DNA of 44,951 nucleotides from Candidatus Lloydbacteria bacterium RIFCSPHIGHO2_02_FULL_50_18 (GCA_001821395.1 MHLM01000013.1:1-44951); one strand, 5' to 3'; shown: positions 5,770 through 44,951, counted from the stretch's first letter. Numbers and translations: made by a program. The notes: a model not told the origin generated them from the letters alone.

Positions 5770-7260
5770 ATGGAAGAAAAAAATAAGCCTGGTGCATACC
5801 GGGCAGGCGGACGACCGTCATATGGCGGTACGCGACGTGCAGTGGTTCTCGGTGGTATTGGTGGAGGCGGTCGCTATGAACCGCCACGCAAGCGCACAAA
5901 GAAAAGTAATTTTATCAGCAATATCGAGCGTGGAGGAGCTCCAGAGGCCCCGCGAACCGAGCGTCCTGCGTCGCACTCTGCGCCATTTGCGCGGCCAGCT
6001 TCTACCCCTCGCAAGTTCGCCCCGCGTTCATCTTCATATTCCTCAAATTCCTCATCACGTGGTACAAGCTCGTTTGGCGGAAGTCGCGGAGGTTTTTCAC
6101 GCGGTGGAAGCGGACGTCCGCAGCAGAAGCGCGGAAATACAAGAAATCCGGGTGAGAATATCGATGTCAATCGTTTTGTGAGTCGCGCAGTCGTAGTCGA
6201 GGAGGAAAAAATTTACGTCCCGACGCATCAGTTCAGCGATCTCAAGATCGAGACGAAGTTAAAAGAGAATATTACGAGAAAAGGTTATTCCATCCCAACT
6301 GCTATTCAGGATCAGTCGATTCCCGAAGTGCTAAAGGGTCGTGATCTTATCGGTATCGCAAATACCGGAGAAGGCAAGACCGCCGCATTTTTGGTGCCAC
6401 TGATCAACAAAATGATGCTTCATCCGGAGAGCCGTGTACTGGTCATTGTTCCGACGCGCGAGCTCGCACTTCAGATCGATGAAGAATTCATGGGATTTGC
6501 GAGGGGGCTCGGCATTTATTCGGTGTTGCTTGTCGGTGGAACGTCGATGGGTATGCAGATCGAGCGCTTGCGCCGTAGAGTGCGCATGGTCATAGGCACA
6601 CCGGGACGTCTCAAGGATCTCGTGGAGCGCGGAGAGCTGAAGCTTGCTGAGTTCGATAACCTCGTACTCGACGAAGCAGATCGTATGCTCGACATGGGTT
6701 TTATCGTGGATATCAAATTTCTCATTGAAAAAATGCCGAAGGAACGTCACACGCTCTTTTTCTCAGCGACATTCTCGCGCGAGATTGAGGACTTGGCACA
6801 CCGCATGCTGCACGACCCTATCCGCATCTCCGTGAAGAAGCAGGACACGGCAAAGAACGTGGAGCAGGACATCATTCGCTTCCGCGAGAAAGGTCAAAAG
6901 TTCGACTTGTTGTGTGACCTCTTGCACAAGTCCGAGTTCAACAAGGTACTCGTCTTCGGACGCACTAAACACGGCGTGGAAAAACTCGGCAAGGATCTCG
7001 CGCAGGCCGGATTCCGTGCCGCTTCGATTCATGGAAACAAGACGCAGCCGCAACGCCAGCGCGCACTTAAGGATTTCAAGGATGATCGTGTTCAGATCCT
7101 TGTTGCAACCGACGTCGCGGCACGCGGACTCGATATTCCGAATGTCTCGCACGTTATTAACTATGAAGTGCCGGGAACCTATGATGACTACGTGCATCGT
7201 ATCGGACGTACCGGACGTGCCGGAAAGAAGGGGGCAGCACTGACATTCGTAGAAGGATAA
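5770..7260 (+). CDS. DEAD-box ATP-dependent RNA helicase with ~130-aa N-terminal RGG/GGS-rich extension
   Basis: Q-motif and GEGKTAAF (motif I), DEAD at LVLDEADRMLD, SAT, HGNKTQPQR, ARGLD and HRIGRTGRAG motifs. The N-terminus is glycine/arginine/serine-rich. Confidence 0.9.
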   Translation: MEEKNKPGAYRAGGRPSYGGTRRAVVLGGIGGGGRYEPPRKRTKKSNFISNIERGGAPEAPRTERPASHSAPFARPASTPRKFAPRSSSYSSNSSSRGTSSFGGSRGGFSRGGSGRPQQKRGNTRNPGENIDVNRFVSRAVVVEEEKIYVPTHQFSDLKIETKLKENITRKGYSIPTAIQDQSIPEVLKGRDLIGIANTGEGKTAAFLVPLINKMMLHPESRVLVIVPTRELALQIDEEFMGFARGLGIYSVLLVGGTSMGMQIERLRRRVRMVIGTPGRLKDLVERGELKLAEFDNLVLDEADRMLDMGFIVDIKFLIEKMPKERHTLFFSATFSREIEDLAHRMLHDPIRISVKKQDTAKNVEQDIIRFREKGQKFDLLCDLLHKSEFNKVLVFGRTKHGVEKLGKDLAQAGFRAASIHGNKTQPQRQRALKDFKDDRVQILVATDVAARGLDIPNVSHVINYEVPGTYDDYVHRIGRTGRAGKKGAALTFVEG

Positions 7261-9999: not shown

Positions 10000-11016
10000 A
10001 TGAAGCTCGAACGCATATTGCACATCTTCAGTTTCATCATCGCACCATGCGTTATTGGGGTGCTCAGTGCGCTTTTTTTTCTGCAAAGAGGGGCATTGCT
10101 TTTTCCAGTTCACCCAGTTACTCCGGTGGGGGAGCAATCAACGAGCACAACCTACGTCATAACCGCGCCGGTCTTTAGTCCACCCTCGCCACCCCTCGAT
10201 CCTTCAAGGAGCACAGCTATACGACAACTCATTCCGGATGTCATTGCGCCAACCTCCACTCCAGAGAAGACGGTGGTGACACCGGAACCGCTCATCATCT
10301 GGAAGGATGCCGCACCTGACACTTCGATCACGAACAATACAGCCACTGGCGTGTCTCTCGCATTGAACGAGAGCGATATCGTTCGCTTTACGAATGACGA
10401 ACGTGCAAGTGAGGGACTGCCGCCATTTTCGATGAATAGTAACCTTACTGCGATCGCGAGAGCAAAAGCGATCGACATGATCGAAAAACAGTACTTTGCA
10501 CACGTATCGCCGTCCGGTATCGATGTGGCAAAAATGTCAGAGTTTTATGGTTATCTCTACTTGAACATCGGAGAAAATTTAGCACTCGGTGACTTTGTTT
10601 CGAGTCGTGAAGTGGTAACAGGCTGGATGAATTCTCCGGGACATCGGGCAAATATCATGAATACGAGCTACAAAGAGATAGGTGTCGCCGCACTCGTGGG
10701 TACCTATGAAGGGCATACGGTTTGGTTCGCGGTGCAGGAATTCGGCCGTCCTCTTTCCGATTGCCCGTCGCCAGATCCGCTGCTTGATAAAAAGATCAGT
10801 ATTTTTGAAGAAGAGCTTACGAAGCTCGATGGGTCGCTTGATAGACTGAATACACAAATGGAAACTCCCGGCACGAGTGCCAAAGCCTATAATCTAATGG
10901 TCGATGATTTTAACACCATCGCCGAACTGTACAATAGTCTTCTCGCTACAACGAAGGATGCAATTCTTCGCTACAATGCGGAAGCCAAAAGATATAATGA
11001 TTGCGTCGGCTTATGA
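10000..11016 (+). CDS. membrane-anchored CAP/SCP (PR-1-like, YkwD family) domain protein with Pro/Thr-rich linker and C-terminal coiled-coil-like tail
   Basis: An N-terminal hydrophobic segment, then the CAP core NDERASEGLPP ... GENLA ... GWMNSPGHRANIMN ... YKEIGVA. Confidence 0.75.
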   Translation: MKLERILHIFSFIIAPCVIGVLSALFFLQRGALLFPVHPVTPVGEQSTSTTYVITAPVFSPPSPPLDPSRSTAIRQLIPDVIAPTSTPEKTVVTPEPLIIWKDAAPDTSITNNTATGVSLALNESDIVRFTNDERASEGLPPFSMNSNLTAIARAKAIDMIEKQYFAHVSPSGIDVAKMSEFYGYLYLNIGENLALGDFVSSREVVTGWMNSPGHRANIMNTSYKEIGVAALVGTYEGHTVWFAVQEFGRPLSDCPSPDPLLDKKISIFEEELTKLDGSLDRLNTQMETPGTSAKAYNLMVDDFNTIAELYNSLLATTKDAILRYNAEAKRYNDCVGL

Positions 11017-37609: not shown

Positions 37610-38098
37610 ATGTCGAAGCGCACACGAATGTTCGTTCTTCCGTCGCTCATTTTCATGTCGCTTTTTGCGTTTCTGCTGTTTGGTCACGTGCGGCAAACGA
37701 TACACGATCGTGTACTTTGTTCCCATGGAACCCATCTCTTACATCTTTCAGATCCGATCGTTGTCACCGTACTTCGAACACAGGAAGAACATCGTCGCGG
37801 ACTTTCAGGGAAGGAAGAGCTCCCTCCTGATGAAGGAGTGATCTTTGATTTTGGTGTAGTCGGACCTCAGCATTTTTGGATGAAGGATATGCGATTTTCA
37901 CTTGATATGATATTTCTTGACAGCGATTGGAGGGTGGTGAAAATCTTTTCGGCTGTGCACCCTGATTCATATCCGGATTCATTTGATTCTCCGGATGACA
38001 CGCGTTATGCGCTTGAGGTGACATCCGGCCTTGTTGCGAGAGAGCAGCTTACCGTTGGTACAGCATTGCGCATGCTTTCGTGCGAAGAAATTTATTGA
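37610..38098 (+). CDS. DUF192 (COG1430) family protein with N-terminal membrane anchor
   Basis: GLSGK...GVIFDFG...HFWMKDMRFSLDMIFLDSDWRVVKI...YALEVTSGL matches the DUF192 consensus pattern. Confidence 0.7.
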   Translation: MSKRTRMFVLPSLIFMSLFAFLLFGHVRQTIHDRVLCSHGTHLLHLSDPIVVTVLRTQEEHRRGLSGKEELPPDEGVIFDFGVVGPQHFWMKDMRFSLDMIFLDSDWRVVKIFSAVHPDSYPDSFDSPDDTRYALEVTSGLVAREQLTVGTALRMLSCEEIY

Positions 38099-40536
38099 TA
38101 GGAGGCGAGATAGTGCATCAGCGTTTCTCCGACGAGCGTTAGGCTATTTGCGCTGCAGTGTGAAGGTGTATCGTTTGTCGTATTGAACCAGGGCTCGTAA
38201 TCAAAGTCGATGACGAGAAAGGAGGGAATTCCTGCCGCGATAAGGGGAAGATGGTCGTCACCTATCTTGTGCTTCACGGAATGATCAAATACAAGCGGTG
38301 CGAGGGCCCCGCCGATGTCCCAGAAACGCGATTGCTCTTCTTTTGCGGCATTGTACGAATATGCCTCTTTAGCAATCCCAAGATCCTCATCGCAAACCAT
38401 ATCGAATAGCACTGCGTGGTCCGGTTTTCCGGCTAGGTATAGTGCTGGGTACATTGCGGCAAAATGGGTTGAACCGAGCGGCGTCCAATTCGGGTCACCG
38501 CCACCCAGCGCAGTCGCCCCTTCTTCCCCGTCAAAGAAGACGAAGTCGATGCCAAGCGTGCTCGAGGCATGATCGAGGGACAATGTCCGCGCCGCCTCAA
38601 GAAGCAGTGCGACGCCGGATGCGGAATTATTCGCTCCGGGCATATATGCGTTGGGATCTTTTTTATCACGATATGCGCGACTGATGCTGTCATAATGAGT
38701 TCCGAGAATGATTCTTTTTTTTGCTTCGGGATTATATCGGGCAATGATATTCGACAGGGGAATAGGTCGATTGTCGTCGGTCACATGCACCCACGAGTCA
38801 CGTGCCGCATCAATATGCAGGTCCTGCATTCGCTTGAGGAGAAGGTTGCCTAGTGCGTTATTTCCCTCCGAGCCGATCTCCCGCGAACCGAGCGCAACGA
38901 TCGTGCGGATGTCCGTCATCGCGTTTGCTCCTTCGAATTGTGTAAAACGTCCTCGTTGTGGTATCGATTCCTCCGCGTGCTGATCATTTTGGTCTGCAAT
39001 GAATCGCGTTACAAGGTGGTCGACCGGCGCGAAGTCGTCGGTCAGGATGTCATACTGCTCAAGTGATCGTCCGGCGATCGGAAAAATGTGTGAATTCAAG
39101 CTTGCGAGAAACGGATCGGTGCTGGTGCGGATGCGTTCCTCGATGCCCGGCATGAGTTGGTCTGCCATTCCGACAACAATGAAATTCTGTACCTGCGTGC
39201 TCGCGGGTGATTCCGCGGCAAAGACGTATACATAGGGAAAAACATCTTTCATCGTACGGAGCTCGGAAAAGAGGAGCGATTCATCGGACGTGGCCCCGGA
39301 ACCAATGATGTTTGCCATGAAGATGCCTTTTGGTGCAAGGTGTTCCTTTGCATTTTGAAAAAATTCTCTTGTGGTGAAATGCGTCGGGATCGAATAGAGA
39401 GAGAAATAGACATCACTAAAAATAAGATCATATCGGTCTTTGCTTTCACGAAGAAAGCGACGGCCGTCCATTGTGTGCGTTCTGATGGAGGTGGTTTCGG
39501 TAAGATCAAAATACTCTTTTGCGATCGATTCGAGTTCCGGTTCGATCTCTACGACATCGATCTGTGCGTTCGCTCGTTCCCCATGTATCGCTTTTGGAAT
39601 GGTATATATTCCTCCGCCGATCACGAGTGCACGAGCAAGCTCGGGGTTTGTGAAGCGGTACAAAGCATAATATTTTGTGTAGTCGAAGGTGAGATCTTTT
39701 CCGTCAAGAAAGATTGCGCCCGAGCCGCTTCGGTCTTGGAGAAAAAAACGAGCGGGCCGTCCCGCGTAGATAGAGTCAAGAACGGTGAGCTTTTCATAAA
39801 CACCGTCTTTCATATAACGTATGCGCGGATCGAGGTCTGCGTTCCTTGCGATTATGAATGTTGCAGTGATGGCGATGAGCAATAGCAGCAAAAAGAATAT
39901 GGCATCCCGACGTCTTGCTCCCGTAGTAGTTGAAACAAGCCCGCATCCTCCCAGAAGAACGATGAGCGTTGTCGTTCCGTAGAGGATGGCACTAATGCCA
40001 ATGGAGGGGATAAGGACGAATCCCGCAAGTAAGCTGCCGAGGATCGAGCCTGCAGTCGACCAGAAGAAGATATTGCCGCTCATGGTCCCCAATCCCATGT
40101 GGGGACGGAATTCATGTCCGAGTTTGATTGCGAACGGCGACAGCATGCCGAGGAGGTAACCGGGCATAAAAAAGAGCACCATTGACCAAATGAGCGGCCC
40201 GGTTCTGATGGAGAAGAGGCCGCTTGCGATGGGTAGGATCGTCAGTGAAAGGACGTACAGCACAAAGAGGCTGATACCGCCTTTGAATATCACATTGTAG
40301 AATTCTTGAAACGTTGGTTTTGCATCCGCTCGTATGCCGCCCTTCCAGTATCCGACAGAAAGTGCCGCAAGGATGACGCTGATCACCGACGAGACCGTAT
40401 AAATGGTGTTTCCATAAAAAGGCGACAGGATGCGTGTTGCGGTGATCTCGATCACGAGGATAGCGGCACCGGTCACAAAAACGATCGATTGCAGACGATA
40501 TTTATCCCACCACGCATAGAGTGAACCTTTTCTCAT
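38092..40536 (-). CDS. three-domain fusion: N-terminal polytopic membrane domain + spermidine synthase-like (aminopropyltransferase fold) domain + C-terminal M28 peptidase/glutaminyl-cyclase-like domain
   Basis: About 7 transmembrane segments. The middle domain carries VIGGGIYTIPKAI...DVVEIEPEL...YDLIFSDVYFS (spermidine synthase-like). The C-terminus carries GTHYDSI...PGANNSASGVALLLEAA...FVFFDGEEG (M28 fold, with Asn where the metal-binding Asp pair is expected). Confidence 0.75.
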   Translation of the reverse strand: MRKGSLYAWWDKYRLQSIVFVTGAAILVIEITATRILSPFYGNTIYTVSSVISVILAALSVGYWKGGIRADAKPTFQEFYNVIFKGGISLFVLYVLSLTILPIASGLFSIRTGPLIWSMVLFFMPGYLLGMLSPFAIKLGHEFRPHMGLGTMSGNIFFWSTAGSILGSLLAGFVLIPSIGISAILYGTTTLIVLLGGCGLVSTTTGARRRDAIFFLLLLLIAITATFIIARNADLDPRIRYMKDGVYEKLTVLDSIYAGRPARFFLQDRSGSGAIFLDGKDLTFDYTKYYALYRFTNPELARALVIGGGIYTIPKAIHGERANAQIDVVEIEPELESIAKEYFDLTETTSIRTHTMDGRRFLRESKDRYDLIFSDVYFSLYSIPTHFTTREFFQNAKEHLAPKGIFMANIIGSGATSDESLLFSELRTMKDVFPYVYVFAAESPASTQVQNFIVVGMADQLMPGIEERIRTSTDPFLASLNSHIFPIAGRSLEQYDILTDDFAPVDHLVTRFIADQNDQHAEESIPQRGRFTQFEGANAMTDIRTIVALGSREIGSEGNNALGNLLLKRMQDLHIDAARDSWVHVTDDNRPIPLSNIIARYNPEAKKRIILGTHYDSISRAYRDKKDPNAYMPGANNSASGVALLLEAARTLSLDHASSTLGIDFVFFDGEEGATALGGGDPNWTPLGSTHFAAMYPALYLAGKPDHAVLFDMVCDEDLGIAKEAYSYNAAKEEQSRFWDIGGALAPLVFDHSVKHKIGDDHLPLIAAGIPSFLVIDFDYEPWFNTTNDTPSHCSANSLTLVGETLMHYLASYQ

Positions 40537-40745
40537 GGAAAAATTTTAACATAGTGTCGAGCGAAAGAACACGTGGTCGCATGTGGTCAAGTGCGGTATC
40601 GAAAAATATAGTATTGATATTTGCGATCGTTGCGTATTTGAATAGTGAGCATTCGAAGTGTAAGTGCAACAAAATACTCACGCTTTTCATAAGTTATCCC
40701 CATTAGGAAAAGTCTCTCAAGTGACGATACAATAGGCACATAAAC

Positions 40746-43308: not shown

Positions 43309-43641
43309 CATTCATTTTTGGCGAATTTCATCGTTGACTTCGACGAGCGGTCCGGCGAACTTACGAGAGTAAGTCCGCTCGGACACGCCCGCCTTGTCGC
43401 CTCGAACTTCATCCAAAACTGAACGTTAAATTGCGAAGGCAATTGGAGTGAGGAGGTGTTTGGCGTTACGACACGAAGTCGTCAAAGCACCCAATAATTG
43501 CGACCAATTTTTCTTAGCGGTAGTCCGCTTTAAAAGTATGAAGTGCCCAAGTGGTGCACACCAAACTGACTTTAAACTGGCAATTTCACACATAGATTAA
43601 CTTAACGTCACAAGTCATTGCGTATTAATTTGGAATTGATC

Positions 43642-44355
43642 ATGATAATAGTAATTCTTCTAGCATTCATCGTTTGGTTATTTCTTGCGCTATACTGCTT
43701 TTACCTTCTCAAAATATATCGATCCAAAAAAGCAGAAATAAGACAAAATTCTACTATAAGCAAGGCGGATAAACCAATAGCAGAAAAACTGCAGTATGAA
43801 CTGACCGTTGAAGACAAGTTGCTAGGGTTTTCCGTAAAAAGCTTTATTACACTTACAACCAATGCGCTATTAGTGATTATCACCACGATAGGTGTGTATA
43901 CTTCAGCCCAGTCTTTTAGGGAACAAAGTGTTTTAAATCGAGAACAAAACATACTTGAATATAAAAAAGAGAGAGCATATGTGAATTTGCAAAAATTTGA
44001 GGATATTGTGTTTCCGAATGGTAATCATAAACTAGTATTCCAAATATCAAATTCTGGAGGAACTCCGGCAATGAAGACTGTCGCGTCCGTGTTTTACTCA
44101 GAAGATGTAACTGATGAAACAAAGAAAAAAGAATTTTTACGTTACTTTGCGTTGACGGGACTGACAATTTCGCCAGGCGGAAGTTGGGCATATAATTTTG
44201 ACGTGCGAAAGGAGTTACTAATAAATTACGCACAAGATTCAGCAATATTATTTGATGTAAATTACAACGATTATCTTGGAGCGAGTAAAATAAGTCGCAC
44301 GCTAGTTGTGTTTAGAGACAATAAATTTGAAGTTCTGGGTAATGAAATGGATTAA
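43642..44355 (+). CDS. hypothetical membrane protein in an AT-rich block (two N-terminal transmembrane segments, then a soluble domain)
   Basis: Open frame from TTG 43618, with ATG at 43642. Its composition is markedly AT-richer than the rest of the window. Confidence 0.5.
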   Translation: MIIVILLAFIVWLFLALYCFYLLKIYRSKKAEIRQNSTISKADKPIAEKLQYELTVEDKLLGFSVKSFITLTTNALLVIITTIGVYTSAQSFREQSVLNREQNILEYKKERAYVNLQKFEDIVFPNGNHKLVFQISNSGGTPAMKTVASVFYSEDVTDETKKKEFLRYFALTGLTISPGGSWAYNFDVRKELLINYAQDSAILFDVNYNDYLGASKISRTLVVFRDNKFEVLGNEMD

Positions 44356-44529
44356 AACGGAAACCTCTATCCAAAAAACGGGGATAATTCCAAACAAACC
44401 TCAAATCACTAAAGTATTATTTAGCTGCTATCGCTGATAAATAACACTTTTGAAAACGGGGATAATCTATAAAAAACTGTCGGGAGTACTTTTTTGTACA
44501 TAGGTCGAACGCGAAGCATTGCTGGAAAA

Positions 44530-44558
44530 TAAAAAACCCGCATGTGCGGGTTTTGTGA
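44530..44558. terminator. bidirectional terminator (A6-CCCGCATGTGCGGG-T4)
   Basis: Perfect 6-bp stem flanked by A-run and T-run. It sits immediately after the stop of the minus-strand ORF at 44570. Confidence 0.75.
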
Positions 44559-44569
44559 AGCGTATGTGC

Positions 44570-44821
44570 TTAGGTTTTTTGGGGAATGATTTTGAATGCG
44601 TCATTTTCCCCGACATACTCTCCCGTTCTCAGAAGGATCACGTGTTGGAATCCATAGAACATAAAGGTCTTATGGCCGACCGTCTCAAAGCACACCATGG
44701 GATCGGTACGACCGCCTCCAGCCGAATTTTCCACTTTGGCAATAGTGTGCCACCTGCCTTTTATCCGTATTTTCCCCCCAGTGCATTTGTCGGCAATATT
44801 CCTCATTTCGAAGATTCTCAT
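44570..44821 (-). CDS. small hypothetical protein (83 aa)
   Basis: GGGAG sits 6 nt upstream of the ATG on the minus strand. A terminator follows the stop. A plus-strand ORF at 44519-44881 overlaps it and is less supported. Confidence 0.4.
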   Translation of the reverse strand: MRIFEMRNIADKCTGGKIRIKGRWHTIAKVENSAGGGRTDPMVCFETVGHKTFMFYGFQHVILLRTGEYVGENDAFKIIPQKT

Positions 44822-44951
44822 TTCTCGCTCCCATTTCTGTTTTATTCTGTTGCTGATATTACTACGAGGTACTTTCTTTGAAAACGGGGATACTTAAATT
44901 CTAACCTGAATTGCAACAAGGAATTATTGGCGCGCTGTCAATAAAACAACA

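Follow-up and report, generated by a model that had tools for sequence, protein, structure and literature searches.

Insertion of an IS30-family element at a recurrent GGGGA motif downstream of nrdJ in a Candidatus Lloydbacteria contig, and a probable patchwork of mobile repeats and acquired DNA around it

Insertion sequences (ISs) of the IS30 family encode a DDE transposase and move by a copy-out-paste-in mechanism. They insert either into near-palindromic hot spots with a 2-bp target duplication or beside their own inverted repeats (PMC9333248). Other ISs home into repetitive extragenic palindromic (REP) sequences, and the families surveyed in this respect are IS3, IS110, IS4, IS256 and IS5, with IS30 not among them (PMC1525189). 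Here we analyzed the block downstream of nrdJ at the end of a contig from Candidatus Lloydbacteria bacterium RIFCSPHIGHO2_02_FULL_50_18, a member of the Patescibacteria or Candidate Phyla Radiation (CPR), whose mobile elements are poorly catalogued. The whole stretch that was analyzed, referred to as the window, is 44,951 nt long (GCA_001821395.1 MHLM01000013.1:1-44951), and the block occupies its positions 43309–44951. We consider it probable that the block is a patchwork, in which an IS30-family element sits at its target motif beside fragments of a mobile repeat and an acquired orphan gene. The features on which the argument turns are the following.

44375–44386, plus strand: motif copy 1, 20 nt past the stop codon of a gene for a 237-aa protein, matching only the head of the repeat family
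44453–44464, plus strand: motif copy 2, matching only the head of the repeat family
44879–44892 (core 44881–44892), plus strand: motif copy 3, putatively the start of a complete ~50-nt repeat unit that is interrupted by the IS
44893–44951, plus strand: left end of a 1,118-bp IS30-family IS with the left inverted repeat CTTAAATTCTAACCTGAATTGCAA; the window stops 59 nt into the element

Nearly all contigs with this locus stop 124–212 nt upstream of the start of an 83-aa open reading frame (ORF) in the block, just inside the IS. One contig, L004, continues through the element and 1.3 kb beyond the window, and encodes a 332-aa transposase that matches the NCBIfam IS30-family model NF033563 with 218 bits (cut-off 80) and carries the Pfam domain HTH_38 (E 6e-12), together with a weak match to the rve core (E 0.008). 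The inverted repeats are 26 bp long, CTTAAATTCTAACCTGAATTGCAA at the left and CTTAAATTCTATCTTGAAACGCAA at the right end read inward, and agree at ~20 of 24 positions, or at 22 of 26 when the flanking TA is counted. The match to the family model, the N-terminal HTH_38, the 26-bp inverted repeats and the ~1.1-kb single-ORF layout are all shared with IS30 of E. coli and its family. At least 23 contigs carry the identical 332-aa transposase, flanked by four distinct sequences on the left and three on the right, and the last 59–65 nt at the window end recur with 100% identity in 10 loci whose flanks differ. Assemblers break in multicopy repeats. The contig and the window end where they do because the multicopy IS begins at 44893, which makes the window end an assembly break inside a multicopy IS and no biological boundary. 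What had looked like a puzzle at the end of the contig is thus not an unresolved island, a plasmid origin or a prophage. The first-pass annotation had advised looking downstream for integrase or replication genes; neither was seen, and the downstream gene is instead the DDE transposase, with the third repeat as its target.

The dinucleotides that flank the element are TG, TA, TA and AA on the left and TA, AA and TG on the right. The two sets correspond, as a 2-bp target duplication predicts, and the copy in the window would accordingly have duplicated TA at 44891–44892.

The target itself could be characterized from 31 distinct flanks of elements with transposases 65–100% identical. GGGA lies exactly at −6 to −3 from the IS terminus in 12 of these 31 flanks, against a background of 0.0034 per position (binomial P ~3e-22), and GGG lies within −8 to −2 in 18 of them. 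This fixed distance in 12 flanks identifies the motif as the preferred target of this IS30 subfamily, and the flank statistics show an insertion preference, read from sequence, for a point 2 nt past GGGGA preceded by A/T-rich sequence, mostly AAA[C/T]GGGGA. Copy 3 adjoins the element as ...GAAAACGGGGA-TA-[IS], with GGGGA at 44886–44890 directly followed by the TA at 44891–44892, and by the same statistics it is the left half of the site struck by this IS copy. Furthermore, three independent lineages (the window, L110 and L105) have GAAACGGGG(A) directly at the IS end, and relatives at 46% identity have TAATGGGGA 2–3 nt outside their termini. On the far side of the element several copies have the complementary half TCCCC[A/G]TTT, in keeping with the preference of IS30 for near-palindromic hot spots; both palindrome halves surround the IS in L198, as AAATGGGGA-CA-[IS]-TG-TCCCCATTT, and in L191 as well. 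A metagenome scan with the transposase returned mostly relatives 30–50% identical and added little on close insertion sites. The transposase probably recognizes the motif during target capture. Compared with described members of the family, the target AAA[C/T]GGGGA-NN is new and the host belongs to the CPR; moreover, this target seems not to be a unique hot spot but to form the head of a different repeat family. A subfamily targeted this sharply would add IS30 to the families that home into short genomic repeats.

Tandem arrays were seen outside some ends of related elements. L198 has three copies of GGAAATGGGGACA with a 31-nt period directly outside one IS30 end (705–790), L105 has tandem TTATTAGGGACG upstream of its IS, and L196 has GGGGATAGGGACCGGGGG upstream of its own.

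Within the window, the 12-nt core AAAACGGGGATA occurs exactly at 44375–44386, 44453–44464 and 44881–44892, always on the plus strand, and no further match with up to one mismatch was found on either strand of the 44,951 bases. The chance expectation is 0.15, and three matches were reached in 0 of 100 shuffles. Copies 2 and 3 have 16 nt in common (TTTGAAAACGGGGATA), while the stretch common to copies 1 and 2 is 14 nt (AAAACGGGGATAAT); ACTTT lies farther upstream in copies 2 and 3, with an offset that amounts to a 3-nt indel. The three direct copies reported in the first-pass annotation therefore stand, and the core is 12–16 nt, the 20-bp form given there holding for copies 2 and 3 only. The copies are spaced irregularly, at 78 and 428 nt, and all are extragenic, with hairpin potential weak or absent in all three. 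Copies in the promoters of core genes were not encountered: neither the other 43 kb of the window nor the loci L009–L018, which flank the IS in the same population, contain the motif. A ~60-nt segmental duplication giving rise to copies 2 and 3 was considered and dropped, the upstream similarity being non-significant (reached by 80 of 1000 shuffles), and a search for a tRNA or tmRNA fragment as an attachment (att) site found none. DnaA boxes, a sigma-28 promoter, dif, integron attC, a CRISPR repeat and a DNA-uptake sequence were considered too and are unlikely, as they would differ in sequence, spacing or copy number. Meanwhile, L004 (sample ERZ27254763), which spans the whole IS, ends one base inside copy 2 (window position 44454); this hints at a population variant that diverges exactly at the motif, for example by a deletion between copies 1 and 2.

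Sixteen copies of the motif-bearing repeat could be aligned over ~50 nt, consisting of a head AAA[C/T]GGGGATAAGTCC, ~25 nt, and then a TGTGnTAnAAT-like box. A profile for nhmmer was built from the non-window copies only. The empty site reconstructed by joining copy 3 to the right flank 'a', GAAAACGGGGATAAATTCAATTG, matches this profile over positions 6–54 (E 1.5e-5), which suggests that copy 3 and the sequence beyond the IS made up one full unit before the element split it. Flank 'a' is most likely the true continuation of copy 3, and it leads into an Smr-domain gene and then a PNPOx-family gene (seen in L013, L015 and L016). Copies 1 and 2, which lie in the 3' untranslated region of the low-GC 237-aa gene, would be remnants of the head alone or target sites that have stayed unused.

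The same repeat recurs in relatives, where its surroundings are informative. It is present as AAAAACAGGGATAAC 27 nt past the stop codon of the homologue of the 237-aa gene in L019, and downstream of nrdJ in the closest genomes as GGAAACGGGGATAAGTCC (L020) and GAAAACGAAAACGGGGGTAAGTAC (L021). In L020 it is followed after 38 nt by a truncated ORF, MPRMNRLAFGDTIYHVINRANG..., that resembles the N-terminus of Y1 (IS200-like) transposases, and in related metagenome contigs it lies ~45 nt upstream of truncated Y1 ORFs; the protein collection holds five such Y1-like fragments (P0129–P0133) of 61–75 aa. Around these fragments the repeat recurs in inverted orientation downstream in L247 (227 plus, 646 minus) and L248 (1 plus, 201 plus, 278 minus), and it is inserted within the Y1-like ORF in L249 and L248. 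In L248 it builds an 85-nt palindrome (−17.3 kcal/mol, z −3.8), and hairpin potential is clear in L019, L110, L247 and L248. In L249 the copy ahead of the Y1 ORF and the one within it are direct repeats of each other. Inverted pairs, interruption of an ORF, a palindrome and the Y1 association together point to a mobile repeat resembling REPs, REP doublets forming hairpins (REPINs) or miniature inverted-repeat transposable elements (MITEs).

Two further observations concern these contigs. The Y1-like ORFs of L249 (348–395/585–628) and L248 (1–45/201–245) are cut at about codon 52–61 by a second copy of the repeat that precedes them, and since all five Y1 fragments end near the same place, the truncated form may itself propagate. 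In L247 (645–745) the last ~85 nt of an IS30 element, comprising the 3' end of the transposase gene and the right inverted repeat, are joined directly to an inverted repeat head, the deletion being internal to the IS and having its end point at the repeat.

Taken as a sequence of events, the preferred reading would run as follows. The motif would be the head of a ~50-nt REP/REPIN- or MITE-like mobile repeat, and this head would be bound by the IS30 transposase during target capture. A multicopy IS30-family element would have inserted at copy 3, 2 nt past GGGGA, duplicating TA, and would thereby have split a full repeat unit made up of copy 3 and flank 'a', just upstream of the Smr-domain gene. 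The 237-aa gene with its flanks would have arrived horizontally.

Several observations weigh against this reading. First, the flank joins are inconsistent among metagenome assemblies, with flank 'a' linked to all four left flanks in different samples. As assemblies join the flanks differently, joins across the IS are unreliable, in no single copy can both ends be read with certainty, and the pairing of copy 3 with flank 'a' consequently rests on the TA and the profile match and not on unambiguous read-through. In particular, joins between left flank B and right flank b in four assemblies (L009, L010, L011 and L014; compare L012 and L015–L018) contradict a simple pairing by duplication: the dinucleotide of B is TG and that of b is AA, yet independent assemblies join them repeatedly. 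Either recombination between IS copies or chimeric assembly across the IS would account for the B–b joins. Second, copies 1 and 2 match the ~17-nt head only, are non-significant alone (E 0.56 and 1.7), and could be something else. Third, the Pfam Y1_Tnp match to the fragments is below threshold (17 bits, cut-off 23), and no intact Y1 transposase was found. Fourth, the window together with L009–L018 shows the family in one cluster only, plus a related TAATGGGGATAAC upstream of nrdJ, and the repeat is far sparser than classical REPs. At last, the repeat heads, AAA[C/T]GGGGATAAGTCC, have no GTAG. A GT[AG]G tetranucleotide at the 5' end is a defining feature of REPs, which usually begin with GTAG. 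Since there is no intact Y1 gene, no GTAG, a low copy number in the available DNA and only weak hairpins in the window, where moreover no Y1 gene flanked by repeat copies was found, membership in the REP/REPIN class is unproven.

With these points in view, the repeat appears closest to the REP/REPIN elements associated with RAYTs (REP-associated tyrosine transposases, which are Y1-type and IS200-like) or to MITEs derived from IS200-type elements. Like REPs and REPINs, it has inverted copies around a Y1-type gene and a palindromic doublet (the 85 nt in L248; definition in PMC3337134), and its copies are extragenic, often just past stop codons; it differs in that the Y1 genes are truncated fragments of 61–75 aa with sub-threshold Pfam matches, in the missing GTAG and in its low copy number in the available DNA. 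The direct copies in L249 recall a MITE or the left end of an IS200/IS605-type element more than a REP or REPIN. The insertion pattern also recalls REP-targeting ISs, among them IS1397 and ISKpn1 of IS3 and IS621 of IS110, which share a fixed insertion position inside a short, extragenic, partly palindromic repeat and whose repeat clusters likewise coincide with strain-variable regions (PMC1525189); the present family, however, is sparse and only loosely palindromic. A more far-reaching version of the preferred reading, which we put forward only tentatively, is that the ~50-nt arms with their AAA[C/T]GGGGATAAGTCC heads would constitute an undescribed REPIN/MITE-like repeat of Lloydbacteria and related Paceibacteria, derived from or mobilized by Y1 transposases, into whose heads a dedicated IS30 subfamily homes as safe sites, with arrays building up beside IS ends. 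Among the papers listed by a full-text literature search, none treats REPIN/RAYT elements and Patescibacteria together. A repeat family linked to Y1 remnants would offer an entry point to the plasticity of ultra-small genomes and to the breaks in their contigs. We regard the finding as real and as mostly ordinary mobile-element biology that changes no major concept; what is modestly new is the GGGGA-NN target of this IS30 subfamily and the REP/MITE-like repeat tied to Y1 remnants in the CPR.

The main alternative, which we judge unlikely, is that the motif is a promoter-associated protein-binding site of the host, an operator or UP-like element regulating the local units, near which the IS landed. 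The region upstream of nrdJ provides an argument for it. In eight Paceibacteria genomes, ATAAGTTATCCCCATT, which is related to the motif, lies 24–26 nt (mostly 25) upstream of a −10-like TACAAT/TATAAT box ahead of nrdJ, at the following places in relatives.

L020 7582, L021 7822, L023 142, L028 4255, L029 5830, L070 7870 and L098 7359: nrdJ-upstream ATAAGTTATCCCCATT sites

The nrdJ-upstream element is itself probably an nrdJ promoter or regulator site, by its position, and appears unlike the NrdR box consensus. Its core is the reverse complement of the motif core. In the repeat family, the TGTGnTAnAAT box lies ~25–28 nt past the motif directly before start codons, and in the window copy 1 has TATTAT 28 nt downstream, as does the reconstructed copy 3 with TACTAT, 12 nt ahead of the Smr start codon. 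Against this alternative, the motif ahead of nrdJ and the motif in the repeat family face the −10 box in opposite orientations, no gene follows copies 1 and 2 ahead of the terminator, and a consensus promoter scan was empty at the copies. In 1.2 Mb of related loci a looser pattern was only ~2-fold enriched in intergenic sequence, an excess owed mostly to the nrdJ site. Furthermore, repeat units interrupt coding sequence and form inverted pairs, and operators do neither. A degenerate pattern over the same 1.2 Mb showed no enrichment past same-strand stop codons, and a general 3'-end or terminator-like element was discarded as a candidate.

We hold it to be improbable that the extra motif copies are by-products of IS30 activity, as duplicated flanks or as decayed solo ends left by insertions targeted to inverted repeats or by rearrangements. 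IS30 does target its own ends and generates complex rearrangements (PMC9333248), direct arrays of the flank motif stand beside one IS end in L198, L105 and L196, and the 3' IS30 fragment in L247 is fused to a repeat copy. However, the block shows no more than chance resemblance to the IS body or ends; local alignments of block segments to the IS on both strands, made for decayed IS30 ends, were no better than shuffles, and a by-eye likeness of the flanks of copies 1 and 2 to the inverted repeat was dropped for that reason. The motif is also present without IS30 within 8 kb in L020 and L021, and repeats of 12–16 nt are beyond the reach of a 2-bp duplication.

The idea of the first-pass annotation that the copies are iterons from the origin of a plasmid or phage, or att-like repeats at the borders of an integrated element, can draw on short direct repeats in an AT-rich, compositionally foreign segment beside a mobile-element gene, but is very improbable: the irregular spacing is unlike iterons; no Rep, partition or tyrosine/serine integrase gene was found in the 1.3 kb beyond the window in L004 or among the flank-'a' Smr and PNPOx genes of L013, L015 and L016, and the neighbors, among which there is no replication initiator gene, are a membrane-protein orphan, the 83-aa orphan and the IS30 transposase; the copies neither enclose nor adjoin a tyrosine or serine recombinase gene, and copies 2 and 3 bound a stretch of host-like composition; the 237-aa protein has no homologue by tblastn in 50,697 phage records, 72,556 plasmids or IMG/VR; and the 46 matches of the 16-mer in IMG/VR are single, lie on separate contigs and look like chance.

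The remaining features of the block are listed below.

43344–43391, plus strand: stable hairpin directly past the nrdJ stop codon, part of the conserved nrdJ 3' region and not of the AT-rich block
43642–44355, plus strand: gene for a 237-aa predicted membrane protein, the low-GC core of the block, near-orphan
44533–44554, both strands: intrinsic terminator hairpin, bidirectional, where the 237-aa and 83-aa genes converge
44570–44821, minus strand: orphan ORF of 83 aa, preceded by a Shine-Dalgarno-like GGGAG and provided with a terminator of its own

The composition past nrdJ is less uniform than the first-pass annotation had it. A GC content of 0.34–0.38 is confined to ~43450–44650, about 1.1 kb around one gene; the initial 140 nt past nrdJ have ~50% GC, and the 83-aa ORF is host-like. 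The 237-aa gene has a GC content of 0.348 and a GC at third codon positions (GC3) of 0.309, compared with 0.499 ± 0.025 and 0.539 ± 0.054 for 34 other ORFs. Its product has no significant match in Pfam, PHROG, PADLOC or NCBIfam, and one real homologue, 49% identical and encoded in L019, among 1.84 billion cluster representatives. The 83-aa ORF, with GGGAG 6 nt ahead of its ATG and a host-like GC3 of 0.548, matched only itself among 5.8 billion protein clusters and gave nothing significant in Pfam, PHROGs, PADLOC or NCBIfam. AlphaFold models of the 237-aa protein (mean predicted local distance difference test score, pLDDT, 62; long N-terminal helices and a C-terminal beta domain) and of the 83-aa protein (pLDDT 48, uninformative) were of too low confidence for a fold search. 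The gene and its flanks (~1.1 kb, 35% GC) appear to have been acquired horizontally. Of the acquired DNA proposed earlier, then, the variable spot, the compositionally foreign near-orphan gene and the mobile element at the window end remain, and the plasmid or phage remnant falls away, as do the iterons and the att sites. The membrane-protein gene, the perfect bidirectional terminator, the minus-strand ORF with its Shine-Dalgarno sequence and the bracketing of this ORF by copies 2 and 3 were all described correctly.

The surroundings of nrdJ in relatives fit with a changeable region. In the closest relatives (NrdJ 94–81% identical) homology ends ~80–260 nt past nrdJ, and none of 80 related nrdJ loci has the 237-aa, 83-aa, Smr or PNPOx genes nearby. 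Upstream synteny is kept, with a fused spermidine-synthase/M28 peptidase gene and then nrdJ, while the region downstream of nrdJ holds the Y1 fragment and a toxin-antitoxin-like pair of genes in L020 and other small AT-rich ORFs in L021. This downstream region was different in each of the relatives compared, and it is a variable locus that gathers accessory DNA and mobile-element debris.

The terminator at 44533–44554 is a perfect inverted repeat of 10 bp and folds on both strands as RNA with a 9-bp stem and a 4-nt loop (−13.8 kcal/mol on the plus and −13.3 kcal/mol on the minus strand). The GC-rich hairpin is followed by a U-tract on either strand, UUUUGUG on the plus and the better UUUUUUAUUUU on the minus strand, as in an intrinsic terminator. 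Known RNA families gave chance-level matches only, on this terminator (E 1.2–3.8). The hairpin at 43344–43391 (−28.3 kcal/mol, z −3.9, GAGA loop) has no Rfam match, and in its L020 counterpart the inner stem differs by one compensatory change (ACTTAC/GTAAGT to ACGTAC/GTACGT); it may act as a stabilizer of the nrdJ 3' end or as a terminator.

A second short repeat, CCAAA(A)CTGA(A)C(G)TTTAAA, lies between nrdJ and the 237-aa gene at 43411–43433 and 43556–43578. It is also found downstream of nrdJ in relatives (L021 ~10403–10428; L028 ~6985–7015 and ~7214–7240) and upstream of the 237-aa homologue (L019 ~40–75).

On the other side of nrdJ, the upstream region of the window (40685–40745) contains the site TTATCCCCATTAGG at 40693–40706. 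In L020, a 41-nt segment with the nrdJ-upstream element (L020 7553–7593; window 40672–40712) is duplicated downstream at 10736–10776 with 93% identity, and nrdJ is thus bracketed by two copies. The adjoining gene of the window, at 38092–40536 on the minus strand, encodes an 814-aa protein that combines a multi-pass membrane region with spermidine-synthase-like and M28 peptidase domains, and the gene for this fusion protein adjoins nrdJ in several relatives (L020, L028 and L029).

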